The notes beneath the pieces are model-generated. The model saw only the letters and a program-made list of their open reading frames with translations, did no database searches and was not told the DNA's origin. A stretch of DNA of 64,000 nucleotides, from the NCBI GenBank assembly GCA_963741945.1, contig CAVUKA010000001.1:1120001-1184000 (forward strand), given 5' to 3'. The translations under genes and the position numbers were made by a program. The stretch comes from an uncultured Gemmatimonadales bacterium. Lineage in GTDB: Bacteria; Gemmatimonadota; Gemmatimonadetes; Longimicrobiales; RSA9. Positions 18,060-45,714 of this stretch are shown piece after piece. Position 1 is the stretch's first letter. Each line of letters starts with the position of its first letter.

Positions 18060-20399
18060 ATGAACCGAGCCCTCGTTCTGGCTTTCGCGCTCGTCCTGCC
18101 GGCCTGCGCCAGGTCCGGTGTCGGCATCCCCCTCGAATCGCGCGTGCCGCCCGGCGGCGTGCCATACCCGGCGAACCCGCTCGAGCCACACCTGACCGAG
18201 CTCCGGCGGGTGACGGACGGTGGCCAGAACGCCGAGGCCTACTTCTCGCCGGATGGCCAGCGGCTGATCTTCCAGGCCGTGATGCCCGGCGTGTCGGCGT
18301 GTGATCAGCAGTTCACCATGACACTGGACGGGCAGAACCTGCGGCGCGTGTCCAACGGTGACGGCCGGACCACGTGCGGGTACTTCTTCGACGGTGGGGA
18401 GCGGATCCTCTACAGCTCCACGTTGGCGAGCGGGGCGGCTTGTCCGGCCGAGCCCGACATGTCCCGCGGCTATGTCTGGGGACTGTACGATTACGACATC
18501 TACGCCGCGGACGATGACGGCGGGAAGCCCGTCCGCATCTTCGGCTCGCCCGTCTACGACGCGGAAGCGACGCTCTCCCCCGACGGCGCCACGGTGGTGT
18601 TCACCTCCGCCCGGGATGGGGACCTCGAGATCTACACGATGCGACCGGACGGCTCCGACGTGCGCAGGCTCACGCACGAGGTGGGCTACGACGGCGGCCC
18701 GTTCTTCAGCCCGGACGGGAAACGGATCGTGTACCGCGCGTCTCATCCCACCGACCCGCGGGCAGTGGCGGACTACCAGGCACTCCTCGAGCAGGGAATG
18801 ATCCGTCCCACCGCGCTGGACATCTGGATCATGAACGCGGACGGGAGCGGGAAGACGCGCCTGACCGACAACGGCAAGGCCAACTTCGCGCCGTTCTTCA
18901 GCCCGTCGGGCAGGAGGGTGATCTTCTCCAGCAACATGCAGGACCCGCGGGGCCGCGATTTCGACCTGTACCTCATCAACGACGACGGAACGGGACTCGA
19001 GCGCGTCACGGTCACGCCTGAATTCGATGGCTTCCCCATGTGGAGCCCCGCCGATCCCACATCGTTCGTGTTCGCGTCCAACCGCGGCGGGAGCGTGGAA
19101 GGGGAGACCAACATCTTCCTGGCCCGCTGGCTGGAGGACGTCGCGCTTTTCGCCCCCACGGTGGGCGGCGGCGACGCGGCGGGCGCAGCGTGCCCGGCGT
19201 TCGACCCCGACGACCTGGCCGGCGACATCGCCGATGCCACCGGCCGATACCTGGCCGACGACGCGCTCCAGGGCCGCTACGCGGGCAGCGCCGGCGCGGG
19301 CTGCGCGGCCGAGCTCGTCGCCTATGCGTTCCGTCGCCTGGGGCTCGCACCGGCGGGCGACGACGGCACCTACTTCCAGGACGTCCCGCTGGCCAGCGCG
19401 GTGAACCCCCACGCCCCGGGCGGCACCGGACGGAACGTGGTGGCGATGCTTCCCGGCACGGACCGGCGCCTGGCGGCGGAGTACGTGGTGATGGGCGCCC
19501 ATTACGACCACCTCGGGACGGGCGGATTCAACTCCCTGGCGCCGGAGCAGCACGCCATCCACAACGGCGCGGATGACAACGCCAGCGGGGTGGCGGCGAT
19601 GATCGACGCGGCGGAGCGGCTGGCCATCGGTCCCCGCCCGCGTCGCCCGGTGGTGTTCATCGCGTTCACCGGGGAGGAGGAGGGCCTGCTCGGGTCGTCG
19701 CACTGGGTGAAGCAGCCCACGGTGCCGCTGGACAGTGTGGTGGCCATGCTCAACCTGGACATGGTGGGGCGGCTGAAGGAGAACGGTCTGGTGGTCTACG
19801 GCACGGGCACGGCGGCGGAGTGGGAGGGGCTGGTGACGCCGGAGCTGGACCGCCTCGGGATCACGCGCCGGAGCTTCATCCCGGACGGCTACGGCTCCAG
19901 CGACCAGACGCCGTTCTACATGAACGGGGTCCCCGTGCTCCATTTCTTCACCAACACGCACTCCGACTACCACCGCCCCGGCGATGACTGGGAAAAGATC
20001 GACGTCCCGGGGCTCCACGCGGTGTCGGAGCTGGTGGCCTCACTGGCGCGGCAGGTGGGGAGCGGCGAACGGATGGCCGTGATCCCGGACGTGGGGAAGC
20101 CCGAGCCCGCGGCGGCGGCCACGTCGCCCGGCTACGGTGCGTATCTCGGGTCGATCCCGGATTTCAGCCCGGTGGAGCGTGGTGTGCTCCTGGGCGGCGT
20201 TCGGGAAGGCTCGCCCGCCGACCTCGCCGGGCTGCGGAAGGGAGACGTGATCGTCCGGCTGGGCGGGATGGACATCGCGGACCTGTACGGCCTGACCGAC
20301 GCGCTGCGCGCCCACAAGCCGGGCGACACCGTCGAGATCGCGTGGCTGCGGGACGGGCAAACCATGCGGGGCACCACCACGCTCGGGGCCCGGCCGTAG
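18060..20399 (+). CDS. Lipoprotein with PD40/TolB-like propeller, M28 peptidase and PDZ domains
   Basis: LPAC lipobox; AEAYFSPDG, YDGGPFFSPDG; GAHYDHLG, NGADDNASG, GEEEGLLGS, NLDMVG, SDQ, YHRPGD; YLGSIPD...GSPA. Confidence 0.9.
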   Translation: MNRALVLAFALVLPACARSGVGIPLESRVPPGGVPYPANPLEPHLTELRRVTDGGQNAEAYFSPDGQRLIFQAVMPGVSACDQQFTMTLDGQNLRRVSNGDGRTTCGYFFDGGERILYSSTLASGAACPAEPDMSRGYVWGLYDYDIYAADDDGGKPVRIFGSPVYDAEATLSPDGATVVFTSARDGDLEIYTMRPDGSDVRRLTHEVGYDGGPFFSPDGKRIVYRASHPTDPRAVADYQALLEQGMIRPTALDIWIMNADGSGKTRLTDNGKANFAPFFSPSGRRVIFSSNMQDPRGRDFDLYLINDDGTGLERVTVTPEFDGFPMWSPADPTSFVFASNRGGSVEGETNIFLARWLEDVALFAPTVGGGDAAGAACPAFDPDDLAGDIADATGRYLADDALQGRYAGSAGAGCAAELVAYAFRRLGLAPAGDDGTYFQDVPLASAVNPHAPGGTGRNVVAMLPGTDRRLAAEYVVMGAHYDHLGTGGFNSLAPEQHAIHNGADDNASGVAAMIDAAERLAIGPRPRRPVVFIAFTGEEEGLLGSSHWVKQPTVPLDSVVAMLNLDMVGRLKENGLVVYGTGTAAEWEGLVTPELDRLGITRRSFIPDGYGSSDQTPFYMNGVPVLHFFTNTHSDYHRPGDDWEKIDVPGLHAVSELVASLARQVGSGERMAVIPDVGKPEPAAAATSPGYGAYLGSIPDFSPVERGVLLGGVREGSPADLAGLRKGDVIVRLGGMDIADLYGLTDALRAHKPGDTVEIAWLRDGQTMRGTTTLGARP

Positions 20400-30071: not shown

Positions 30072-30875
30072 TCAGCGGGGCCCGCCGGACATGAGGTCGG
30101 CGAGCGACGTCGCGTCCACATCCCCGGCCGACCGCTGCGCGGCGATGCGGCCGTGCCGCAGCACCAGGAAGGCGTTCCCGACCTGGAGCGCGTGTCGTGG
30201 GTTGTGGGTGACGAGCAGGACGGCCACGCCGGCGTCGCGCACACGATCAACGTGCTCGAGCACCAGCGTGGCCTGTCGCACACCGAGAGCGGCGGTAGGC
30301 TCGTCGAGGATGAGGGCGCGGGCGCCGGCGTGGACGGCGCGGGCGATGGCGACGGACTGGCGCTCGCCGCCGGACAGGGTGGCCACGGGTCGATCGACGT
30401 CGTCGATGCGGATGCCGAAAGAATGGAGGGCGTCCCGGGTGTCGCGCCGACAGGCGCCGGTATCCAGGCGGCGCAGCGGTCCACGCCCGACGGTCGGCTC
30501 GCGGCCGAGGAAGAAGTTGCGCCAGACGCTCATGAGGGGGATCACCGCGAGGTCCTGGTAGACCACGGCCACGCCATGGCGCTGCGCGTCGCGGGGCGAG
30601 CGGAGCGTCACGGTGCGGCCGTCCACCTCCACGCTCCCCGCGCTCGGCGGATGGACGCCGGCGAGGACCTTGATGAGCGTGCTCTTGCCCGCGCCGTTGT
30701 CGCCGAGGAGGCAGGTCACCCGGCCGGCGTGGAGCTCGAGGTCGACCTCATCGAGGGCCACGACGCGGCCGAAGCGACGGGTGACCCGGCGGGCGGCGAG
30801 GATCGGCGGGGCAGCGGGCGGTCGGTCAGGCACTCCCCCGCCCCGACCCGGCGTCGCTCGCGGGCGCGGGTTCAT
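30072..30875 (-). CDS. Sugar ABC transporter ATPase (CUT2)
   Basis: [33 protein letters not shown] overlap with permease. Confidence 0.92.
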
Positions 30876-31888
30876 TCTCCGCCTCCCCGTTCCGCCACGG
30901 CGCGTCGCGCGGCGCGATTGAACAGCACGGCTGCCAGCAGGAGCGCGCCGAGCACGACCTGGAACCAGTCCGCGCCCACGCCTGTCAGCACGATCCCCTG
31001 GCGCACCATGCCGAAGATGAGCGCGCCGAACACGGCGCCCACGGCGGAGCCGTACCCGCCGGTGAGGAGGGTGCCTCCGATCACGGCTGCGATGATGGCC
31101 CGGAACTCCTGGCCCTCGCCCCTCAGCGCGTCGGCACCGGTGAAGCGCACGGCCTGGATCACCGCCACCAGGCACGCCGCCAGGGCGGTGATGACGAAGA
31201 GCCCGACTTTCACCCGCGCCACGGGGACCCCGAGGTTCCGGGCCGCGTCGGCACCGCCGCCCGCGGCGAAGATCCAGTTTCCGGCGCGGGTGCGCAGGAG
31301 GACCCACGTGGCGAGCGCGGCGAGGGCGACCCACCAGAGGATGGCGACGCGGAACGGTCCGAAGTCGGCGGCGAAGAGAGCGCGCGCGGCCGGGTAGCCG
31401 GGCACGTCGTCGAGTCCGCCCAGCTGGGTGCGGCCCGTCGCCAGCCGGGTCACCGCGATGGCGAGGCCCCGCAGGATGAAGAGCGTGGCCAGGGTAACGA
31501 TGAAGGAGGGGAGGCGGGTGCGAACGACGAGCCACCCGTTCGCGAGCCCCACGAGGCCGGAGAACGCGGCGGTCGCGGCAATGGCCGGCCAGAGTGCCCA
31601 CCCGGCGCCGGCGGTCAGGAGCATCAGCAGCATGCTCGCGGCGCCGATGAGCGAGCCCACGGAGAGGTCGAACTCACCGGCGATCATGAGGAGCGCCACG
31701 GCCACGGCAAGGATCCCGAGCGGCGCGGCGGCGTTCAGGTACGCGGCCGTGCCGGCCACGCTGACGAACGGAGAGCCGGCGACGATGGCGAAGAATGCCC
31801 AGGTGACCAGCGCGCCAGCGGCCGCGCCGAGCTCCGGACGGCGGATCAGCTGCAGAAATCTACGCGGGCGTCCCGTGCGGTGTGCCAT
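30872..31888 (-). CDS. Sugar ABC transporter permease (RbsC-like)
   Basis: [31 protein letters not shown]. Confidence 0.92.
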
Positions 31889-31895
31889 CGCCGCG

Positions 31896-32873
31896 CTACC
31901 GGATGCCCCGACGCGCGAGCGCCATCACGCGGGCGGCGTTGTCCCGGGTGACGAATCCGGGGCCCGTGCGCACCACGGCGCCGCCGCCGGGGAGGGTCAG
32001 CGTCTCCACGTACTTGGTCAGCAGCACGATAGGGAGGTAGCCCTGCAGGTACTGCTGCTGGTCGATGGCGAACGCGATGCGCCCGTCCTCGATCCCGCGC
32101 AACACGTCCGGGGTGAGGTCGAACGTCGCATACGCGATCCGGCCTCCGCGGCCGCTGGCCGCCAGCGCCGCCAGGGCGGGTCCCGCGGCCGCCGGCCCGA
32201 GCGTGAGCACGCCGTCGATGGCCGTGTCCGCCGCCAGCACGCCGGCAATGCGCTGCTGCGTGTCCTCGGGGTCCGCCAGCTGAACGGCGACCACGCGCGT
32301 CTCGCCGCCCGCCGCCGCCAGTGCGTCCCTGAGCCCCGCGCACCGCTGGTCCTGCGCCAGGTTGCCCACCTCGTGGTTGACGCACACGACGTGGCGCACC
32401 CCGGCCCGGGCAAGCCGCTCGCCGCCGGCGTGTCCTGCCCCGTACTCGGTCTGGCCCACGTGCGCGAGGACGCCCAGCGTGCGGTACGCGTCGGCGCCCG
32501 AGTTGATGGAGATCACGGGGATCCCTGCGTCCACGGCGCGCCGGATGGAGCCGCGCAGGGCGTCGGGATCGGGGATGGACACCACCAGCCCATCCGGGCG
32601 CGAAGCCACCGCGGCGTCGATGAGGTTCGACATCTCCACCATGTCGAACGACGTCGGCGCCTGGTACTCCGCCCGCACGCCCATGTCCGCCGCCGCGTCC
32701 CGGACGCCGTTCGAGACCACGGACCAGAACGGGTCCGCCGACTGGCCGTGGGTCACCACCACGAACCGGAGTCCGGCGCGGCCGTCGGAACTGTCGCCCG
32801 GTGCCGGCGCACCTCCGCCGCAGCCGGCGAGAGCGAGAAGCAGGAGCGCGGGCAGAATGGATCTGTAGCTCAT
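31896..32873 (-). CDS. Sugar ABC substrate-binding lipoprotein (RbsB-like)
   Basis: LAGC lipobox; [29 protein letters not shown]. Confidence 0.92.
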
Positions 32874-34648
32874 GGATTGCCGTTCCGGGCGGGTCGAGTG
32901 GCCAGCAGGCCGAGCACCACGCCGTTCGTCCAGCCGAACCCGTCCTGTGTCGGGTACTCCCCGCCACCGGCGGGGCGTTTCAGGTCCACCACGTCGTACT
33001 TCTCCATCATCCGGCCCGTGGCGCGGTACGTGTCCCGCAGCAGCCGGAGCCAGCGCGTGGCCGCCGAATCGGCCAGGGCGCGGGGCGCAGCGGGGTCCGG
33101 CCGAGCCCCGCCGGTCCCCATGACGGCTTCATCGGAATAGCGGGTCACCCCCCGGATGGCCATCCATTCCAGGGGCGGCCAGCCGTTCGGCGCGTCCCAC
33201 TGCTGTCCCGATACCACCCGCGTGGTCACGAAACCGCCCGGCCGGAGGAAGTCGCGGGCGAGAACGCGGGCGACGGCCCGTCCCTGCGCGGGCGTCGCGA
33301 GGCCGAAGAAGAGGGGCACGGCGGCGGCGAGGGTGGGACGGTCGGTCACGCGCTCACCGGTGGGCCAGCGCACATCGTAGAAGAACTGCCGGTCGGGGTC
33401 CCAGGCCAGCGCCAGGAGGTCCCGGCGGCGCGCGGCGGCGGTGTCGTCGAAGCGACGGGCGGCGTCGGCGTCGCCCGGCTGACGCCGGAACCGGAGCAGG
33501 GCGGCGATCGTCCGCTCCTGCTGATAGAGCAGGCTGTTCAGGTCCACCGGCACCAGGTCCGCAGTTTCGAGCGTCCGCAGGTCGGCGGGGTCGCGCATCC
33601 AGCGGCTGGAGAAGTCCCACCCGCTCTCGGCCGTAGCGCGGACGTTGCGGTAGAACGCCGGCCGCGCGGCGGGCGGGAGGGTCTGCCCGATCCGGTAGTC
33701 TTCCCGATACGACTCCGGTCGCGGGTCGTCGCGGTCATCCCAGTAGCGGTTGAGGACAGCGCCATCGGGCAAGCGTACAACGCGCCGATGCGCTTCTCCG
33801 GGCGCGAGCCGGTCGGCGCCATCCATCCAGAACGCGTGCTCGGTGATCAGGGCGTCCAGGTAGCGGAGGGCGCGGGCGGTGTCGGCGGCCTCGGCGAACA
33901 GCCCCACCATTGCGGCCAGGAACGGGGGCTGGCTGCGGCTCAGGTAGTACGTGCGGTTGCCATTCGGCACGTGGCCGTACGTGCGCACCAGCCAGGCGAA
34001 GTTGTCCAGCATGCTCTCGACCCGGTCCACGCGTCCGCTCTCCACCAGACCGATCATCGTGAAATACGAGTCCCAGTAGTAGACTTCGCGGAAGCGGCCG
34101 CCCGGCACCACGTACGGCTCCGGCAGCGGGATCAGCGAGGAGCGGGCATCCGGGGAGTCGGCAGGGCGCGTCAGCACCGGCCAGAGGGCGCGGATGTGCT
34201 CGGCCATGCTCCGCGTAGTATCCGTCCTGAACCCGCCGCCCGCGAACGCCGGGAGCTCGAACTCGGCGCGGACGAAGGCGGCCAGGTCGAACCCCGGCTC
34301 GTCCCGGCGGGCGACGTAGCGCGCCGCCACCAGCTCGGGCGCTTCCCGCGGCCGGGCATCCACGAACGTCTTGGAATCCTCGAAGATCCCGGCCAGCTGG
34401 ACGGCCCCGAAGAGCGGACCGAGGTCACGGGACGGGCGGTAGAGCGACGGCGCGGCCCGGACGGCGGCGCCCCGGCCCTCCGCCTGGACGGGGCGCGCCC
34501 CGGGCGACGGTCTCGTGCCGGTGACCGGCCCGCACGCGAGCGCGGGCAGCGACAGAAGCAGGGTGGCGAGAAGGAGCGCGCGGACGGGGTGCCCGACCGG
34601 CGAGCGGGGGAGTGGCGGGCGGGTGCCCGGCGGCGCGGCGACCGTCAC
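32870..34648 (-). CDS. treA: Exported alpha,alpha-trehalase (GH37)
   Basis: [64 protein letters not shown] lipobox-like; GTG 34648 chosen from GTGA overlap. Confidence 0.93.
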
Positions 34649-35189
34649 GAGAGCGCGGCCAGTGCTGCGTCCACCTCGGGACGGAGTGCGCGCGGGATCC
34701 GAGCGGCGGGCGCTCCCGGCACAGCTCCACGTGACCCATGTCATCGAAGTGCTGGTCCAGGAAGTCCAGATCCGAGTCCCAGTCCACGCCCAGGCGCAGC
34801 TCCACGCCCTCCTCGCGGGCGATGGCGTACAGGATTCCCTGCATGAAGTAGAAGCGCCGCGCCTTCTTCTCCGCCGCCTCCGCCGTGTCGCCCGCTCGCG
34901 GCCATGGGTCGCCGCCCGGCAGGTAGGGCGTCAGGTCCGCGGCATCGCTCAGACCGTGGGCGTCGTAGTCCCCGTGCCCGTCCCGCGGGATGTGGCGACT
35001 GTCGATGGTCCGGGTGACGCCGCGGCGCAGGTAGGCGATCTGCGTCTCGAGAGAGCGCCGCCCCTCCGTGACCGTGAAGTCGTAGATCCGGATGGCGCGC
35101 TCCAGGACCCGGCGAAGGTCGGGGTGCAGCGTCTCGAGCTGGCCGGCGGAAGCGCGGCCGAAACGGAACGGGCCGGGTCGGGCGAACAA
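34645..35189 (-). CDS. M15 peptidase (L-Ala-D-Glu endopeptidase, T5-endolysin/ChiX-like), apparent frameshift near 34700
   Basis: LHPDL, TEGRRSLETQ, SRH...DAADL, GVDWD...DDMGHVEL; start TTG 35189 (GAGGG RBS) or 35231; as written runs to 34425. Confidence 0.8.
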
Positions 35190-35217
35190 GGCGATGCCCT
35201 CGTCGTTGGGGTTGCGG

Positions 35218-35976
35218 CTACGGAACGGCAATCTGAGGCGCCAGCGCGGCGAGGTCCATCGCGTACGCGGCGTCCACGCCCTGGAAGCGGCGAGTGCCGG
35301 ACGCGGGGTGCCGCCCCTTCCCGAACGCCTGGTGCTGGAGATAGAAATCGTGGATGGTGGCTACGTGGTCGTCTCCGTTCGCCCGCAACAGGCGAGTCAG
35401 GAGGTCCAGGAAGGCGTCCACGGCGTCCATGACGGACGCCACCAGGGCGCCATCGAAGCGGGGCGACGACGCGGCCCGGTCCAGCGCCCCGGCCAGCCCC
35501 GTTTCCCGCCTCGCCGCGTCCACCGCGGCGCCCAGCGCTCGCAGGTCGCCATCCGACTCCATGACCACCACGTGGAAATCCACGAACCAGCGCGGCTCCG
35601 TCATGCAGGCCACCACCATGCCGCCGTCGCCCAGCGGCAGCCGGTCGCCCGCGTGGATCCCCGGAAAGCTGCGCGTCCGGTACTCCACCATCCGGCCACT
35701 CCCATCCAGCGCCGCAGTCAGCACGTACAGCTCGGCGGCCGCCCCGAACAGCCGGCCCAGGAGACCCTCCGTCTGCCGCAGCAGGATGAGCTCGCTGAGG
35801 CTGATTGTCAGCCCCACCGGACCCGCCCGCTCCATGTCATCGGCGGCCGCGTCCACCGCGCGGACCAGGGCCGCGTTGGCCGGATCGGCGCGGAAGTCCG
35901 GGGATGAGAGGGCGCGCAGCACGGTGCCCGGGTCCGTCGTCGCCAGGCGCTCGGCGTTCGGTATGGAAAGGCTCAT
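35218..35976 (-). CDS. Hypothetical protein (252 aa)
   Basis: ATGA overlap with patatin stop; typical codon usage; no recognised family. Confidence 0.75.
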   Translation of the reverse strand: MSLSIPNAERLATTDPGTVLRALSSPDFRADPANAALVRAVDAAADDMERAGPVGLTISLSELILLRQTEGLLGRLFGAAAELYVLTAALDGSGRMVEYRTRSFPGIHAGDRLPLGDGGMVVACMTEPRWFVDFHVVVMESDGDLRALGAAVDAARRETGLAGALDRAASSPRFDGALVASVMDAVDAFLDLLTRLLRANGDDHVATIHDFYLQHQAFGKGRHPASGTRRFQGVDAAYAMDLAALAPQIAVP

Positions 35977-37628
35977 GATCGCAGTCCCAGGTAACGGTCC
36001 AGGAAGAGCCCGGCCTGACGCCGGGCGAGCCAGCGCACCAGAGGGCCCGAGACCCGGTTCAGCCACCGGGGGCCCACGTGCACCTCCGCGGCGACGGCAT
36101 CGATTTTCGCCACCACGGCGTCGCGCAGCCGCTCGCGCCCGGCGCGCGGTGCGTTCGCCAGGGTGACACTCCCCAGGTCCAGCGTCGGCTCGTACGCCAC
36201 CCCCGGCTCCGGCACGGGCATCCGCGAGGGATCCATCCCGAGCACGGCCGGCAGCTCCCGGCGCGCCGCCCGGCGACCCACGGTGTAATCATGCTCGCGC
36301 CACTCGCGGGAGAGAAAGCCCGCGAACGCGCTCAGCTGGTCGCCCGCCGTCTCCTCGGGCGTGCTGAAGATGACATGGAGGTCGAGCTCGTGCTTGCTGT
36401 CCAGGCCGGCCACGCTGTTCAGGAGGAAGACCAGCGTGGCGAAGACGTCGCCTCGCAGCTCGCTCATGCCTTCCATCTCCCCGGCCCAGGTGCGCCGCGT
36501 CCGCTCGATGGCGAGCGCCACGTAATCGGCCGGGTAGCGATCTGCCCCCAGGCGCTCTCGCTTGCGCGCCACGATCCCCTCCGCGCTGCAGCGGAGCTCG
36601 GCCAGCAGCCGCGCCGGTTCTTCCACCTCGAGCGCGCGCACCATCCCCGCCATCTGGTGCACCAGCCCGTCACGCCAGCTCACCTCGTTGTTCTTCCGCA
36701 GCGCTTCCAGCCAGTCGTTCGCCGCGGCCTCCCCGCGTACGGCCGTGGCCACGCGCAGCCCGATCCGCCAGAGCGGTGATGCGCCGTCGAACGCGGGATC
36801 GTGCGCCGAGCGGTTCAGATTGGCGTCCACCAGGAGGAAGACGCGATCGGCCGCGAGCCCTCCGTCCGCGGCCGTATCCGCAGCCCGTGACAGCCGGACC
36901 GCCTCCCCCAGTGGCTCGTTGTTGAACAGCCCGCCATCCACGTACCAGAACGCGTCCGGCCACGGCTCCAGCGCGTTGTCCGGGAACGCCGCCGCAAGCG
37001 ACGGCAGCCGGTGCGGCGCGAACGCGAGCGGGAAGTCCCCCGAGGCGATCGCGGCTTCACGCACGCCGCCCCAGAACGCCGGGTCGCCCGCCGTCCCGGC
37101 ATCCACGATGAAGTCCCGCTGCTCGGCGAAAAAGGTGCCGGTGAACGCGTCGCCTGCCGCGGTGCCGTCGCCCGGGTGCCCGCCGTCGCGGCGAGGCAGG
37201 CGGTAGTCCACGCCGGTGAGATTGGTCACGGTGAACGTCATCCGCAGCCGCTCCGGCGCCATCGACGACGGGACGGGCGCCACCCCCGGCTCCAGCGCCA
37301 GGAACTCCCGCGCGATCCGCTGAATCGGGTCACTGGACAGCAGCGCGTTGGCCGGTGCCCGGTCCAGCAGCGCGGCAATGTCGATCTCATCCACCCACGC
37401 ATCGCGCAGCCGCCGTCGTCGACCGAAATCCACCATCACGGCCTCCGCCACCAGCGCGGCGGTCATGGCTCCCGCGGATGCGCCCGTGATCACGTCGATC
37501 CGGTAGCGCTGGGTCGGGGCTCGATTGCGGTTGAGCACGTCGAGAACGTAGAGCAGCTCGTCGAGGACCCCCGCCTCGAAGCTGCCCAGCGAAACGGCCC
37601 CCGACAGGACGAGGGAGATGGCCGGCAT
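35973..37628 (-). CDS. Patatin-like phospholipase with long helical C-terminus
   Basis: LSGAVSLGSFEAG, GASAG nucleophile, AIASGDFP, VDGG. Confidence 0.88.
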   Translation of the reverse strand: MPAISLVLSGAVSLGSFEAGVLDELLYVLDVLNRNRAPTQRYRIDVITGASAGAMTAALVAEAVMVDFGRRRRLRDAWVDEIDIAALLDRAPANALLSSDPIQRIAREFLALEPGVAPVPSSMAPERLRMTFTVTNLTGVDYRLPRRDGGHPGDGTAAGDAFTGTFFAEQRDFIVDAGTAGDPAFWGGVREAAIASGDFPLAFAPHRLPSLAAAFPDNALEPWPDAFWYVDGGLFNNEPLGEAVRLSRAADTAADGGLAADRVFLLVDANLNRSAHDPAFDGASPLWRIGLRVATAVRGEAAANDWLEALRKNNEVSWRDGLVHQMAGMVRALEVEEPARLLAELRCSAEGIVARKRERLGADRYPADYVALAIERTRRTWAGEMEGMSELRGDVFATLVFLLNSVAGLDSKHELDLHVIFSTPEETAGDQLSAFAGFLSREWREHDYTVGRRAARRELPAVLGMDPSRMPVPEPGVAYEPTLDLGSVTLANAPRAGRERLRDAVVAKIDAVAAEVHVGPRWLNRVSGPLVRWLARRQAGLFLDRYLGLRS

Positions 37629-37685
37629 GGCCGCGCCTCCGCTGAGAGCGTGGGAACGGTGCTGCGCTCTGCGACCCCTGTGTTG

Positions 37686-38543
37686 CTATGGACGCCCCGA
37701 CGGGACGGCACCCCTGCGGCCGAGCACCGAGTCGGGATCGATCCCGGTCTCCGCTCGCACCGCCGCCAGGAACAGCCGCACCACGTTCAGAGGGATGATC
37801 ACGCCGTACGACGACGCGGCATCCCGGTACTCGCGGTGACCCCGGTCCACACCCACCACCCGGCCGTCCCGCCGGAACGCCGGCCCGCCGCTCACCCCGG
37901 GAAAGAGGAACAGGTCCGCCTCCAGCGCGTTCGTCCCGGGATCCCCCGGCACGCGCGTACGATACCCACTGCTGTAGCCCGCCGTGAAGCGTCGGAAGAC
38001 CGTGAACTGCGACACCACGTCCGTGTCGCTCGCTTCCACCACACCGCCCTCTGGCAGACCGTAGCCGATCGTGGCCAGCGGCGTGCCCATCGACGCCTCC
38101 TCATCCGTCCAGCGCACGATCGGCAGGCTGTCCGCCCCGATCCGGAGCACCGCCAGGTCCTTCCCGGCGTCCAGCCCCACCACCACCGCATCGTAGAACA
38201 CCGCACTCGTGTCCCGCTGCACCAGAACCTGGAGGTTCGGCACCACCTCCCCCTCGGGCGCCACTACGTGCGCGTTCGTCAGCAACAGCCCGTCCGTCGT
38301 GATCCCGAACGCGCTCCCCACCGGCGCGAACGCCGTGCGGCCAAGCGCGCTCACCACCCGGCTCCCCCACACCGACTGCACCGTCGGCCGCACCGCCGAC
38401 GCCGCCCCCACCCACTCCTCCGGCTCCCGCGCACCACCCTCCGGCCCGCATCCCGATACGAGCAGCATCACGCCCACCACCACGATGGACCGGGCCCGGC
38501 ACGCGACAGGTCGGTGTCCGCTGCGACTCGCCATGACGCCCAT
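37686..38543 (-). CDS. Trypsin-like (S1) serine protease lipoprotein
   Basis: LVSGC lipobox; TNAHVV, DLAVL, GVSGGP; start 38543 or 38534. Confidence 0.82.
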   Translation of the reverse strand: MGVMASRSGHRPVACRARSIVVVGVMLLVSGCGPEGGAREPEEWVGAASAVRPTVQSVWGSRVVSALGRTAFAPVGSAFGITTDGLLLTNAHVVAPEGEVVPNLQVLVQRDTSAVFYDAVVVGLDAGKDLAVLRIGADSLPIVRWTDEEASMGTPLATIGYGLPEGGVVEASDTDVVSQFTVFRRFTAGYSSGYRTRVPGDPGTNALEADLFLFPGVSGGPAFRRDGRVVGVDRGHREYRDAASSYGVIIPLNVVRLFLAAVRAETGIDPDSVLGRRGAVPSGRP

Positions 38544-38821: not shown

Positions 38822-38873
38822 GTTGACCGCGAGGTCAACGCCCGATGCTAACGTTTACTGACCCTTCGGTCAA
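38822..38873. promoter_or_regulatory. Two palindromic operators TGACC-N4-GGTCA (probable TetR sites)
   Basis: GTTGACCgcgaGGTCAAC 38822-38839; TGACCcttcGGTCAA 38859-38873, just upstream of tetR ATG. Confidence 0.75.
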
Positions 38874-38882
38874 GAGGACGCC

Positions 38883-39491
38883 ATGCCAGGGAAACGGCTG
38901 CCCGAGGAAGAGCGGCGAGAGGCGATCATCGAAGCCGCGTTCCGGGTCGCGACGCGGGAGCGGCTCGGGGGGCTGAGCGCGCGGGCGGTGGCGGAGGCGG
39001 CGGGGGTGAGCAAGGGGCTGGTGTTCTTCCATTTCAACGACCGTGAGCGGCTGCTGCTGGCGCTTCTGGAATGGCTGCTGAAGGAGGATCCGCGGGTGCG
39101 TGTGCCGCCGGAGCTGGAGGGGGCGGAGTGGGAGGATCGACCGGCGAAGCGTCTGCTGGCGCTGCTGGAGCACCAGCTGTCGGTGCTTCCGACGCGGCGG
39201 GACCGGTCGGGGCTGTTCCTGGACTACTGGGTTCTGGGGACGGCGGTTCCGGACATTCAGCGCCGGATCCGGTCGGCGTTCAAGCGGTACCGGAGCGAGT
39301 TCCTGCCGTGGACCGCGCCGGTGGTGGCGGCGGCGCCGGAGCGGTTCGAGGGAGTGGGCGGAGAGGGGCTGGCGGGGGTGGTGGTGAGTTTCATCCAGGG
39401 CTGCTCCATGCAGCTCATCGCGGACCCTACGCGGTTCGACCTGGATCAGTACCGTGCGGCGGTCCGGGGGCTGGTGGTACGGGAGCCGTAG
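38883..39491 (+). CDS. TetR family regulator
   Basis: RREAIIEAA...SARAVAEAAGVSKGLVFFHF HTH. Confidence 0.92.
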   Translation: MPGKRLPEEERREAIIEAAFRVATRERLGGLSARAVAEAAGVSKGLVFFHFNDRERLLLALLEWLLKEDPRVRVPPELEGAEWEDRPAKRLLALLEHQLSVLPTRRDRSGLFLDYWVLGTAVPDIQRRIRSAFKRYRSEFLPWTAPVVAAAPERFEGVGGEGLAGVVVSFIQGCSMQLIADPTRFDLDQYRAAVRGLVVREP

Positions 39492-42322: not shown

Positions 42323-43240
42323 GTGGCCACGCAGAGGGGGATCGAGGAGAGGGAGCGGGCGGCGTCCAGCCGTCTGCGCATCGCGCTGCCCAACAAGGGG
42401 CGGCTGGCGCGGGAGGCGCTGGAGCTGCTGGAGCGGGCTGGGCTGGAGCCCGCCATGGTCTCGGAGCGGGCGCTGCGGGCGGATCTGGGGGAGGATTTCA
42501 CCGCCATTTTCGTCCGGGCGCGTGACATCCCTGAGTTCGTGGCGGACGGCGCGGCGGACGTGGGGATCACGGGAAGCGACCTGGTGGCCGAGTCCGGGCG
42601 GGAGATCCGGACGCTCCTCCCCCTGGGCTTCGGCCGCTGCCGCCTGGTGGTGGCGGGCCGCGACGCGGACGGTGAGTGGGACACCGTGGATGCGGTCCCC
42701 GAGGGCGCGCGCGTCGCCACGTCCTTCCCCCGGACCACGGAGCGCTGGTTCGCGGAGCGGGGTCGACGCGTGGAGATCGTCCCCATCACCGGCGCCGCCG
42801 AGGTGGCGCCACACGTGGGCGTGGCGGAAGTCATCGCCGACCTGGTGAGCACGGGCTCCACGCTGAAAGTGAATGGGCTGCGCGAGCTGGCGACGGTGGC
42901 GGAAGTGGAAGCCGTCCTCGTCGCCCGGCCCGCGGATGCGGCGGACGCGGACTGGCGCCGCACGCGGGTGCGGGAGCTGGTGGCCGCGCTGGAGTCCGTG
43001 CTCCGCGCCGATGGCAAGCGGTACCTCATGGCGAACGTCCCCCGGAGCGCGCTCCTCCGCCTCCGGGACGTGCTCCCGGGGCTCAACGGGCCCACCATCG
43101 TGGACATCCTGAACGCCGGCGAGCACGTGGCCGCCCACGCCGTGGTGGACCGCGCGGAAGTCTACCGCACCATCGCCGCGCTGAAGGAGCTGGGCGCGGA
43201 GGGGATCCTGGTCACCCGCATCGAGAGGCTGATGCCATGA
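42323..43240 (+). CDS. hisG: ATP phosphoribosyltransferase (long form)
   Basis: IALPNKGRL, RARDIP, DVGITG, DLVSTGSTL, C-terminal regulatory domain. Confidence 0.95.
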   Translation: MATQRGIEERERAASSRLRIALPNKGRLAREALELLERAGLEPAMVSERALRADLGEDFTAIFVRARDIPEFVADGAADVGITGSDLVAESGREIRTLLPLGFGRCRLVVAGRDADGEWDTVDAVPEGARVATSFPRTTERWFAERGRRVEIVPITGAAEVAPHVGVAEVIADLVSTGSTLKVNGLRELATVAEVEAVLVARPADAADADWRRTRVRELVAALESVLRADGKRYLMANVPRSALLRLRDVLPGLNGPTIVDILNAGEHVAAHAVVDRAEVYRTIAALKELGAEGILVTRIERLMP

Positions 43241-45714
43241 TCCCCGTGCGAAGACTCGCCGAACTCGACGCCGCCGCCCTCGGCCGTCTCCTGGTGCGCG
43301 GGCGCGCCGGCGACCCCGACGTGGCCCGCTCCGTAGCCGCCGACATCGCCAATGTCCGCGCCCGCCGCGACGCCGCGCTGATCGACCTCGTCCGCCGCTA
43401 CGACGGTGTGTCGCTGGACGCCATCGAAGTCCCCAGGCCGGCCCGGGACGCCGCCCTCGCCGCCCTGGACCCCGCCGTGCGGCGGGCCCTCGAGGAGGCG
43501 GCCGCGGCCATCCGGCGCTTCCACGCCGCCCAGCGCCCCGCGCCCCTGGTCTTCGACGCCGCGCCCGGCCTCACGCTCGGACGCCGCCCGGATCCGCTCC
43601 GGCGCGTGGGGGTGTATGCTCCCGGCGGGCGGGCGGCCTACCCGAGCAGCGTCCTCATGGGCGTCGTCCCGGCCAGGGTGGCGGGGGTGGAGGAGGTGGT
43701 GGTGTGCTCGCCACCCGGCCCGGACGGAACGCCGTCGCCGCTGGTGCTGGCGGCGTGCGCGGTGGCGGGCGCCGATCGCCTGTTCGCGCTGGGCGGCGCC
43801 GGCGCCGTAGCGGCCATGGCGCTGGGCACGGAGACCGTGCCGCGGGTGGACCGGATCGTCGGGCCCGGGAACGCCTACGTCACGGAAGCGAAGCGCCAGC
43901 TCACGGGCGACGTGGGAACGGACGCCCCCGCCGGCCCATCGGAGCTGCTGGTGGTGGCGGACGGGGACGCGGAGCCGGTCACCGTGGCGCTGGAGCTGTT
44001 GGCCCAGGCCGAGCACGACCCCGACGCCGCGGCAGTCCTGGTGAGCACGGACGCGGCGCTCGCGGAGGAAGTGGCCGCGGAGCTGGAACGGCGGGCCCCG
44101 GCCGAGCCCCGGAGCGCCATCGTCGCCGCGTCGCTGGCCACCGCCGGCGCGCTGCTGGTGGCGGACGACCTGGACGCCGCCCTGGCCTTCGCCGAGCGCT
44201 ACGCGCCCGAGCACCTCCTGCTCCTGGTGCGCTCGCCCCGCGACGCGCTGGACCGCGTTCGCGCCGCCGGAACCGTGTTCCTGGGGCCCACCACCTCCGT
44301 CGCGTTCGGCGACTACGCCACCGGCGCGAACCACGTCCTCCCCACCGGCGGGCTGGCCCGGGCATGGTCCGGGCTGTCCCTGGACGACTACTTCCGCTGG
44401 ACCACGTGGCAGGAAGCGGCGCCCGCCGCCGCGGCGGAGCTGGCCGGCATCGTAGCGCCCCTCGCCGACGCCGAAGGCCTTCCCGCCCACGCGGCCGCCG
44501 CGCGACGGGCCGGAGGCGCTGGGAATATTGGTCCCCGTGCGGGCGCCGGCGTGACGCCGAGGCCCCGGGCGGCGTACCGGGACCTGGCGCCGTACGATCC
44601 GGCCCGGCCGCGGCTCCCCCTCGACCTCAGCGCGAACACCAGCCTCTGGGGCCCGTGCCCCGCGGCCGTGGAAGCGCTCCATGCCGCCGCGGTGGACGCC
44701 TATCCGACGCCGTACGCGGACGCGTTGAAGACCGCGCTGGCGGAGACGTGGGACGTGGACGCATCCCAGGTGACCACCGGAAGCGGCTCGGACGACGTGC
44801 TCGACTCCGCGGTCCGGGCGTTCTGCGACCCGGGAGCGGTGGTGGCGTTCCCGTGGCCCACGTTCGGAATGGCGCCGGAGTTCGCGCGCATGAACGCGGC
44901 GGCGCCGCTGCCGGTGCCGCTGGGGCCCGCCGGAGAGCTGGACGGCGACGGCGAGGCGGCGCTGGCGTGCGCCGACGTCGTCTACCTCTGCCGGCCGAAC
45001 AACCCCACCGGGCTCATGCTGCCGCGGGAGCGCGTGATGGCCCTGCTGGAGCGGGCGCGGGGCTTGGTGGTGGTGGACGAGGCGTACGGCGAGTTCGCGG
45101 GCGAGACCCTCCTCCCCGCCGTCCTCGCCTCTGGCCGCGGGATCGTGCTCCGGACGCTTTCCAAGGCGTATGGCCTCGCCGGGCTTCGCGTGGGCTACGC
45201 CCTCGGCCCGGCACCGCTGATCCGGGCGGTGGAGCTCTCCCGCGGGCCGTACAAGGTGGGCGCTGCCGCCGAGCGCGCCGCCGTGGCCGCCGTGCGGGAG
45301 GGGCGGCCGTGGGTGGCCGACGTGGTGCGGCAGGCGACGACGGCCCGGGGCCACCTCGTCGCCGGGCTCCGCGCCCGCGGGCTCACCGCCATCGAGGGCC
45401 ACGGCAACTTCGTGCTGTTCGGACCGGGCGGCGGGGGTGACCGTGCGGAAAGGGCGGACGCTCCGGCGGGCGAGGGTGCGGACGACGGCCCCGGCGGCCG
45501 GGCGCGAGGCTGGGCTGTGGCGGTGAAGGCGGGTCTCGCCGCCCGCGGCGTGGGCGTGCGGGCGTTCCCCGACCTCCCGGGCTTCGGCGACATGGTGCGC
45601 GTCACGGTCGGCCCACCGGCTGCCATGGAGCGGTTCCTGGACGCCCTCGACGGCTCCCGCGCTCTCGCCGGCCGCGATGGCGCGGGGCCGGCACTGGCGG
45701 AGGCGTGGTCGTGA
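43237..45714 (+). CDS. hisD-hisC: Histidinol dehydrogenase in frame with histidinol-phosphate aminotransferase
   Basis: HisD: GVYAPGG, GPGNAYV, AQAEHD, APEHL, GANHVLPT, EGLPAH; HisC from GTG 44551: LDLSAN, GSDD, PNNPTG, DEAY, TLSKAYGLAGLRVGY; no intervening stop. Confidence 0.85.
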   Translation: MIPVRRLAELDAAALGRLLVRGRAGDPDVARSVAADIANVRARRDAALIDLVRRYDGVSLDAIEVPRPARDAALAALDPAVRRALEEAAAAIRRFHAAQRPAPLVFDAAPGLTLGRRPDPLRRVGVYAPGGRAAYPSSVLMGVVPARVAGVEEVVVCSPPGPDGTPSPLVLAACAVAGADRLFALGGAGAVAAMALGTETVPRVDRIVGPGNAYVTEAKRQLTGDVGTDAPAGPSELLVVADGDAEPVTVALELLAQAEHDPDAAAVLVSTDAALAEEVAAELERRAPAEPRSAIVAASLATAGALLVADDLDAALAFAERYAPEHLLLLVRSPRDALDRVRAAGTVFLGPTTSVAFGDYATGANHVLPTGGLARAWSGLSLDDYFRWTTWQEAAPAAAAELAGIVAPLADAEGLPAHAAAARRAGGAGNIGPRAGAGVTPRPRAAYRDLAPYDPARPRLPLDLSANTSLWGPCPAAVEALHAAAVDAYPTPYADALKTALAETWDVDASQVTTGSGSDDVLDSAVRAFCDPGAVVAFPWPTFGMAPEFARMNAAAPLPVPLGPAGELDGDGEAALACADVVYLCRPNNPTGLMLPRERVMALLERARGLVVVDEAYGEFAGETLLPAVLASGRGIVLRTLSKAYGLAGLRVGYALGPAPLIRAVELSRGPYKVGAAAERAAVAAVREGRPWVADVVRQATTARGHLVAGLRARGLTAIEGHGNFVLFGPGGGGDRAERADAPAGEGADDGPGGRARGWAVAVKAGLAARGVGVRAFPDLPGFGDMVRVTVGPPAAMERFLDALDGSRALAGRDGAGPALAEAWS

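Follow-up and report, generated by a model that had tools for sequence, protein, structure and literature searches.

Do genes that follow each other head-to-tail on one strand, several of them with overlapping stop and start codons, belong to one functional system? This question is raised by positions 30072-38543 of the window, a stretch of 64,000 nucleotides from an uncultured Gemmatimonadales bacterium (genome G000). The locus encodes, in this order, an S1-type serine protease, a patatin-like phospholipase, a protein of 252 amino acids (aa), an M15 peptidase, a GH37 trehalase and the three components of a sugar importer of the ATP-binding cassette (ABC) type. An earlier note on this DNA had taken the seven genes from the patatin to the importer as one lyse-and-feed system and had offered a self-lysis module as the alternative. 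According to our analysis the stretch is a mosaic, in which an accessory trio consisting of the genes for the patatin, the 252-aa protein and the M15 peptidase lies between the S1 gene and genes for sugar use. Tentatively, we read this trio as a conflict module that may kill or lyse its own cell, in a manner resembling abortive infection, and that has come to lie beside a sugar-use operon. As regards this possible role, all mechanistic steps, what triggers them and a contribution to phage defence, if any, are inferred.

The mosaic becomes apparent when the gene string is compared with that of relatives. In a sister species of the same genus (G001, approximately 80% DNA identity) the genes for a TetR regulator, the S1 protease, the trehalase, an MBL-fold protein, the sugar-binding lipoprotein, the permease, the ATPase and the M15 peptidase are present, and this locus contains neither a patatin nor a 252-aa gene. 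In another genus (G005), the TetR and S1 genes are followed by a PAS histidine kinase, a patatin (approximately 53-55% identity, tblastn) and a CBS protein. A second genome of that genus (G445) encodes an M15 peptidase, a 122-aa protein, a 348-aa secreted protein and a patatin consecutively (L071:2876-7542), the last three genes overlapping by 1-4 nt and the patatin being 51% identical to that of the window over 550 residues; the other strand encodes an RHH/PIN toxin-antitoxin pair, and an AAA_14/DUF4143 ATPase gene follows downstream. Neither G005 nor G445 yields a trehalase match. The trehalase itself occurs in 13 of 61 genomes of the family (including the window's genome and the unpublished G020), and in the 10 genomes examined besides G001 no gene for the S1 protease, the sugar-binding lipoprotein, the M15 peptidase, the patatin or the 252-aa protein lies within 1.5 kb of it. 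The S1-trehalase-importer arrangement is common only to the window and the sister species, and the patatin-M15 and the trehalase-ABC halves are coupled only in the window's genome. The earlier note had itself named a lack of co-occurrence in other genomes as the observation that would speak against a single system; in the neighbourhood check no conserved co-occurrence of the two halves was found, and the seven-gene lyse-and-feed system is not supported.

Since the segment downstream of the S1 gene differs in G000, G001 and G005, it is a rearrangement-prone spot. We also considered an insertion of the patatin and 252-aa genes into an ancestral S1-trehalase junction; as G005 has a patatin downstream of the S1 gene, too, we did not adopt a direction for the change. 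The S1 gene is located next to a TetR gene also in G001 and G005, and its locus in G001 lacks the patatin. It is thus a core neighbour, probably outside the accessory module.

What recurs is the proximity of the M15 gene to a lipase gene. Close M15 copies adjoin one in three of three genomes: a patatin gene in the window and in G445, and in G001 a gene that begins 19 nt after the M15 gene (183 aa) and encodes a 1126-aa protein with an LCAT-like lipase region (142-234) and a CHAT domain (795-1097) (L057:11609-15560). This is a rare enzyme. When close and distant lineages are taken together (these counts, like those for the patatin and the 252-aa family below, include the window's genome), M15 matches were obtained in 4 of 151 genomes of the order, of which the fourth is distant (34-44% identity), and in 3 of the 401 genomes of a phylum sample, where the two beyond the window's own are distant as well (34-44% identity). 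The self-lysis alternative fits these observations better, both in the adjacency of M15 and lipase and in the conflict-type effectors found with the 252-aa family.

The assignment of the first member of the trio to the patatins was correct (Pfam PF01734, residues 6-243, 62.4 bits vs a cut-off of 27.7). Patatins are characterized by the motifs GxSxG and DG[GA], which contain the Ser-Asp dyad, and by a Gly-rich loop near the N-terminus. In an alignment of 10 sequences (A2) GxSxG (G49, S51, G53) and DGG (D231, G232, G233) are invariant, and so are G10, S13, L14 and G15. The AlphaFold2 model (pLDDT 80) consists of the lipase domain and a helical C-terminal half of approximately 300 aa. Its nearest solved folds are CapV (E 5e-6) and CapE (8e-5), lipases of cyclic-oligonucleotide-based anti-phage signalling systems (CBASS), ahead of plant patatin and PlpD; the nearest solved relatives of the lipase are thus suicide effectors. 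The protein stays below the cut-offs of TIGR03607 (70.9 bits vs 262) and DUF3376 (23.9 bits vs 25). Patatin matches occur in 13 of the 401 phylum genomes, and with the patterns used no relative was found in viral contigs. A predicted complex of the patatin with the 252-aa protein received a score of 0.00, which is evidence neither way.

The M15 peptidase was labelled phage-type in the earlier note, and this label is right, because the protein matches the endolysin family PHROG 465 (E 1e-27), the solved M15C enzymes T5 endolysin (4.4e-10, residues 22-170) and ChiX (6.5e-6), and proteins in 1465 phage records, which among the matches listed share 33-38% identity and are mostly annotated as endolysin or M15 peptidase. 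No Pfam model, whether of M15 or of any other family, gave a match even at E 10. In M15C enzymes of the T5 endolysin type, zinc is bound by His, Asp and His, and the catalytic Asp stands three residues before the last His. Candidates for these residues, in SRH, AAD and DxxGHVEL, are present and kept in the sister species, to whose 183-aa orthologue the protein is 70% identical; the first His is placed differently by two alignments, and approximately 12 extra residues lie between the first zinc-binding His and the Asp. No holin or spanin gene was found by the M15 gene, and the 57- and 28-nt gaps and the overlaps leave no space for a holin gene. Inspection of the N-termini by eye revealed a signal peptide in none of the three proteins of the trio, as had been claimed for the patatin and the M15 peptidase.

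The C-terminus of the M15 peptidase deserves a closer look. Four overlaps had been claimed for the string, and three of them were verified by letter as ATGA (35976-35973, 32873-32870, 30875-30872). The letters of the fourth, GTGA at 34648-34645, are likewise in place, but the TGA is out of the M15 frame, which remains open to 34425 and extends into the trehalase gene by approximately 220 nt. The M15 tail of the sister species reads ...AALKIPEDLKEDVEAVLGTLVPA, and the conserved counterpart in the window is found in another frame that ends at TGA 34647-34645. The GTGA junction between the M15 and trehalase genes therefore presupposes a frameshift of one base immediately behind the last zinc-binding His. 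A contig of a short-read metagenome spans 34702-34866 without gaps at a depth of approximately 3, so that the frameshift is no obvious slip of the assembly; this run may be the sample behind the genome and hence not independent.

The most unusual member of the trio is the 252-aa protein. It has no match in Pfam (to E 10), NCBIfam, PHROGs or PADLOC, and a search against solved structures returned a single chance-level match (HU protein, E 0.38). Its family is nameless in all libraries searched. A word-seeded search of 5.8 billion proteins found 18 clusters, and a profile search of 1.84 billion representatives, which stand for clusters at 50% identity, found 220 at E ≤ 1e-3, 59 at 1e-10 and 15 at 1e-30. 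Members are present in 2 of 41 relatives and 6 of the 401 phylum genomes; related contigs are titled Gemmatimonadetes, one of them "uncultured archaeon", and the ESM Atlas contains only nameless clusters of hypothetical proteins, most commonly from Bacteroidota. Viral contigs held no relative with the patterns used, and the viral fold library BFVD nothing at E ≤ 0.001. Asp, His or Gly occupy many of the 42 invariant positions in the family alignment, which include the motifs MESD, NGDDHVATIHDFY and GRHP; the conserved Asp/His clusters comprise D91, D133, H135, E140, D142, D202, D203, H204, H209 and D210.

The AlphaFold2 model of the protein (pLDDT 89, pTM 0.85) shows a beta-sandwich (residues approximately 52-250) with a helical hairpin inserted between strands (147-199). 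Foldseek retrieved mainly C2 domains (E 5e-4 to 1e-2), among them that of cytosolic phospholipase A2 (cPLA2; 3e-3), and the matches listed by VIA-align are also mostly C2 domains (otoferlin C2A: Z 8.4, root-mean-square deviation 3.0, 114 of 126 residues; cPLA2 C2: Z 7.8). C2 domains are beta-sandwiches of eight strands that bind calcium through aspartates in the top loops. Because Z-values of 7-8 are common for unrelated folds, we call the predicted sandwich C2-like and do not assign it to the C2 domains.

We fetched 45 loci that encode relatives of the 252-aa protein and scanned their neighbours with Pfam, tblastn and PADLOC (58 proteins). By tblastn, none of the 45 encodes a patatin, M15 peptidase, S1 protease or trehalase resembling that of the window. 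The same-strand neighbours identified with Pfam are varied and often only a few to approximately 100 nt away (Table 1). Elsewhere near relatives, PADLOC recognized Type IIG restriction-modification genes (L024, L030) and Csa3 (L002). In the sister species, a distant family member of 277 aa overlaps the start of a gene for a 1233-aa CHAT protein (L048:4145-10681), approximately 330 nt downstream of which a phage-tail-sheath-like gene (565 aa) follows. The domain is also found fused to others: among 24 representatives scanned, there are three proteins with an N-terminal caspase and one with a papain domain, and an 837-aa protein named "caspase family protein" by NCBI bears it as well. An alignment of remote members (A3) revealed no longer fused forms, which is weak evidence. 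By inspection, most of the effector neighbours have no visible signal peptide, and an all-against-all BLAST of the neighbour proteins detected no domain common to the different effectors. In a grouping made by eye and without a control set, such a hydrolase occurs in approximately 11 of about 22 neighbourhood types, and the cyclase or the alpha/beta hydrolase in two others. In two loci a PycC-like cyclase of 225-233 aa ends 6 nt before the relative (L007:2940-4337, L009:100-1521), which mirrors the cyclase-effector layout of Pycsar, and in two others tandem paralogues or fragments adjoin a full copy (L036:3145-4617, L008:1415-2110).

Table 1. Features of the window and genes found beside relatives of the 252-aa protein
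Locus	Positions	Strand	Feature	Basis or remark
Window	37686-38543	-	S1 (Trypsin_2) serine protease	Pfam Trypsin_2
Window	35973-37628	-	patatin-like phospholipase, 551 aa	Pfam Patatin
Window	35218-35976	-	252-aa protein, nameless family	no library match; C2-like model
Window	34425-35189 (as frame stands)	-	M15C (LAS) peptidase, phage-endolysin type	catalytic domain 34719-35189
Window	32870-34648	-	GH37 trehalase	start GTG 34648 or GTG 34597
Window	31896-32873	-	sugar-binding lipoprotein, CUT2-type ABC importer	Peripla_BP_4
Window	30872-31888	-	ABC permease	BPD_transp_2, Pfam 156 bits
Window	30072-30875	-	ABC ATPase, 267 aa, single-domain	ABC_tran
Window	38845-38873	-	sigma-70-like promoter match	consensus scan; upstream of S1, faces divergent TetR
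Window	38883-39491	+	TetR gene	divergent from S1
L042			unrelated shorter patatin	32 nt upstream of 252-aa relative
L005			PLD	adjoining 252-aa relative
L035			PLD-helicase	PADLOC Type IV restriction enzyme, 738 bits
L006			CHAT	adjoining 252-aa relative
L014			caspase, then clostripain	beside 252-aa relative
L029, L030			SNase	beside 252-aa relative
L041			astacin	beside 252-aa relative
L043			CHAP	beside 252-aa relative
L038			EEP nuclease	beside 252-aa relative
L007-L009			small cyclase	6 nt upstream of 252-aa relative; PADLOC Pycsar PycC-like, 1.6e-17
L001, L015 and others			alpha/beta hydrolase	beside 252-aa relative

How might such a trio work? Since the M15 peptidase has no signal peptide, like T5 endolysin and ChiX, it needs something that opens the inner membrane. 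Upon a trigger, the lipase would hydrolyse the phospholipids of this membrane and thereby take over the job of a holin; the endolysin-like peptidase could then gain access to the peptidoglycan and cleave it. As the conserved partner, the C2-like protein might restrain the effector or bring it to the membrane. The window's genome (96.7% complete) has no match to the sheath of a type VI secretion system (PF05943) or to a phage-type sheath (PF04984), and none to CHAT, caspase or SMODS (PF18144) models. As neither sheath was found in the genome, delivery to other cells seems less likely. A bolder version, which we regard as rather unlikely, would make the 252-aa protein the founder of a bacterial family of C2-like switches that respond to membranes or calcium and are combined with interchangeable death effectors; the trio would then be a holin-free device for suicide lysis and a prokaryotic conflict counterpart of the C2-phospholipase pairing in eukaryotic cPLA2 and PLD. 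That the combination had not been described before, as the earlier note supposed, agrees with the library and literature searches: full-text searches, which covered articles without their supplements, yielded no description of either the 252-aa family or a pairing of patatin with M15, and only one C2-like defence protein, SthRAP-9, which is transmembrane.

Several observations weigh against a conflict module. In the window, the cluster is flanked by housekeeping-type genes (UvrA, panE, TetR, an arginase-family gene, histidine biosynthesis genes and ABC exporters), and no integrase was seen in these flanks. The stretch is listed in no RNA run and in one DNA run only, with fragmentary contigs. 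The M15 enzyme may be impaired because of its frameshifted tail, and the patatin has only a chance-level match in PADLOC (phospholipase model, E 0.09), where no model matches the 252-aa protein or the M15 peptidase. The association of the three genes is not maintained in relatives, either: the close patatin orthologues of G005 and G297 occur without M15 and without a 252-aa gene, and the 122-aa and 348-aa proteins between M15 and patatin in G445 are unrelated to the 252-aa family (hhalign probability <1%). In the family's neighbourhoods, the uncontrolled grouping leaves about half of the types without an effector, the constant downstream neighbour in the largest group of loci (soil-type, high G+C; 14 loci) is a PKD/beta-helix lipoprotein, and in L003 and L004 the relative stands alone between divergent and convergent genes. 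Finally, the C2 scores of the model (Z 6-8.4) lie in a range that unrelated folds also reach, and distant patatin homologues (27-32% identity, A2) are located just downstream of an M23 peptidase gene in five of the nine loci inspected, in a stable, housekeeping-looking context.

The physical arrangement of the locus was described correctly in its essentials. All eight genes, including that of the S1 protease, are tightly packed on the minus strand, and every frame is open from start to stop. The distance of 57 nt between the S1 stop codon and the patatin ATG is borne out by the letters, and a GGAGG precedes this ATG. The sugar-binding lipoprotein and permease genes are separated by 7 nt, and the stop codon of the 252-aa gene by 28 nt from TTG 35189, if the M15 gene begins at this TTG, which aligns with the ATG of the sister-species gene. 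The promoter candidate upstream of the S1 gene is the sole sigma-70-like match on the minus strand, compared with 0.3 in shuffled sequences. In a consensus scan no terminator-like site was found between the eight genes and one minus-strand match upstream of the S1 start (38743-38731). These signals hint weakly at one shared transcript for the gene string. The G+C content of the window is approximately 72%, and because of it there are many open frames on both strands.

The genes around the trio are members of well-known families, and the earlier identification of a GH37 trehalase and a sugar ABC importer holds. The periplasmic S1 protease (Trypsin_2, 76.3 bits) has a signal peptide that ends in LLVSGC and is a probable lipoprotein, judged by this motif. 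The trehalase scores 449.6 bits with the Pfam model (cut-off 21) and 561.8 bits with the TreF subfamily model of NCBIfam (cut-off 512), and its signal peptide is of the lipoprotein type (LPALAC). The importer contains the set of domains typical of the CUT2 type of monosaccharide importers (Peripla_BP_4 171 bits, BPD_transp_2 156 bits, ABC_tran 109 bits). For the sugar-binding lipoprotein the nearest NCBIfam model is that of a rhizopine-binding protein (349 bits, under the cut-off of 420), and the ATPase has one nucleotide-binding domain and matches only the first half of sugar-ATPase models of approximately 500 positions. Patatin, M15C-like enzyme, GH37 trehalase and CUT2 transporter are all members or near-members of known families.

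A few further observations concern the surroundings. A single frame of 1012 aa (42676-45714) encodes a histidinol dehydrogenase (213-610) together with a class I/II aminotransferase (649-991); it could be a fusion of hisD and hisC or an open reading frame (ORF) that was called too long. At their 3' ends, the plus-strand TetR gene and the minus-strand arginase-family gene share approximately 65 nt (39427-39491), if the longest ORFs are real. Two 95-nt tRNA calls by ARAGORN (19126-19220 and 43709-43803) lie inside long ORFs and were rejected as probably false; Rfam detects a tRNA nowhere in the window.

Which other explanations could account for the trio? It might be the 252-aa protein itself that kills, if its beta-sandwich, once activated, freed the hairpin into the membrane, with neighbouring proteases and cyclases as activators and lipases and nucleases as co-effectors. 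The remote branch of the family has, inserted between strands 5 and 6, a helix-Pro-helix hairpin rich in Ala, Gly and Val, whose peak hydropathy is at least 1.6 in 47 of 107 proteins. Family members also occupy the effector position in the Pycsar-like pair, stand beside or are fused to caspase or CHAT domains, as gasdermins do, and are solitary in some loci (L003, L004). However, the hairpin of the window's own protein is amphipathic and charged, the fold matches listed do not include any pore-former, and lipases and nucleases are no activators, so that we consider this explanation unlikely.

Alternatively, the patatin and the peptidoglycan peptidase could remodel lipids and wall in a housekeeping turnover of the envelope, with the 252-aa gene as a mere passenger. 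The core genes in the window's flanks would suit this, and so would the M23 gene just upstream of the distant patatins, which come from a different family of the phylum, where 10 of 30 genomes have a patatin match. Such M23-patatin pairs are found in L089, L090, L091, L094 and L095, with Pyr_redox_2 and M24 genes upstream and ADH or LapA-domain genes downstream. The pattern can be read as housekeeping or as a deeper link between lipases and wall peptidases. Yet a patatin, an M15 peptidase and a 252-aa gene of the window's type each occur in no more than a few per cent of the genomes covered, the gene order is different in every genome, and the M15 lineage is of the phage-endolysin type and lacks an export signal. 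Housekeeping is thus quite unlikely.

A lipase and a peptidoglycan peptidase are also the classic pair of antibacterial effectors that target the envelope. Accordingly, the patatin and the M15 peptidase might be secreted toxins comparable to Tle lipases and Tae peptidases, and the 252-aa protein their immunity protein or an adaptor for secretion. The distant family member and CHAT gene of the sister species, which adjoin the phage-sheath-like gene, would be compatible with this. The lack of a match to either sheath family in the window's genome and the lack of visible signal peptides speak against it, and a single family with neighbours as different as lipases, proteases, nucleases and a cyclase does not resemble specific immunity proteins; its caspase fusions, moreover, suggest an intracellular role. 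We regard secreted toxins as improbable.

The same low probability is given to a chance juxtaposition of three functionally unlinked genes in the rearrangement-prone spot downstream of the S1 gene. High-GC genomes are gene-dense everywhere, and the segment in question differs among the three genomes compared; nevertheless, the ATGA overlap between the patatin and 252-aa genes, the second, unrelated patatin immediately upstream of a family member in L042 and the lipase beside M15 in all three genomes weigh against chance.

That prey envelopes or acyl-trehaloses are broken by the patatin and the M15 peptidase, trehalose is split by the trehalase and the sugar imported, as the lyse-and-feed proposal has it, is highly improbable: the tight packing, the lone promoter-like site, the absence of internal terminator-like sites and the M15 gene inside the trehalase/ABC neighbourhood of both genomes of the genus are outweighed by the separate occurrence of the two halves in the relatives, by a patatin and an M15 peptidase without export signal (by inspection) next to a trehalase and a sugar-binding protein that are lipoproteins, and by the resemblance of the latter to an inositol-type (rhizopine) binder rather than to any known binder of glucose or trehalose.

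The own-cell-killing module therefore remains the reading that we tentatively prefer, and the finding deserves follow-up, chiefly for the 252-aa family. If the reading is true, a rare (approximately 220 clusters) but confidently modelled nameless family would join the modular conflict systems of bacteria, a lipase that opens the membrane for an endolysin would provide a holin-free route to cell lysis, and there would be a bacterial case of a C2-like module acting with phospholipases. For annotation, the lesson is that a co-oriented string of genes with ATGA overlaps in a high-GC genome is not necessarily one system; here, it unites a sugar-use operon with an unrelated accessory module.

Among the known systems, CBASS is the first to be compared. 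CapV and CapE, which the window's patatin resembles most closely among solved folds, are cytoplasmic lipases of the patatin fold that kill by degrading the membrane. However, the patatin has 551 aa, of which about 300 make up a helical C-terminal half without counterpart in CapV, the identity is 13-17%, and no CD-NTase was found among the eight genes or elsewhere in the window's genome. Since there is no SMODS match in the genome, the module is not CBASS.

With T5 endolysin and Serratia ChiX, the M15 peptidase of the window shares both homology and the lack of a signal peptide. In contrast to phage lysis cassettes and to ChiWXYZ, the locus contains neither holin nor spanin, and the neighbours of the peptidase gene are the 252-aa and trehalase genes. 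There are also no other phage genes near it, and the frameshifted tail and the insertion of approximately 12 residues set the enzyme apart from those of phage lysis cassettes.

Cytosolic phospholipase A2 unites a C2 domain and a patatin-related lipase in one eukaryotic architecture. The window resembles it in the pairing of a C2-like sandwich with a patatin-type lipase, and the C2 domain of cPLA2 is itself among the fold matches. The differences are that two genes are involved, that no sequence similarity to a Pfam family was found and that the 252-aa family is also paired with proteases, nucleases and a cyclase.

Pycsar, Lamassu, retrons and the pairs of gasdermins and proteases are modular defence systems, in which a constant partner is combined with interchangeable effectors. 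The 252-aa family resembles them as a small conserved partner with swappable effector enzymes, sometimes near restriction genes, and in its arrangement with the PycC-like cyclase. Bacterial gasdermins are characterized by a gasdermin fold next to a caspase-like protease; the 252-aa family has protease neighbours and protease fusions, and no gasdermin is among the fold matches listed. A constant partner with swappable effectors is a known design; what would be new here is the 252-aa partner and the pairing of a lipase with an endolysin.

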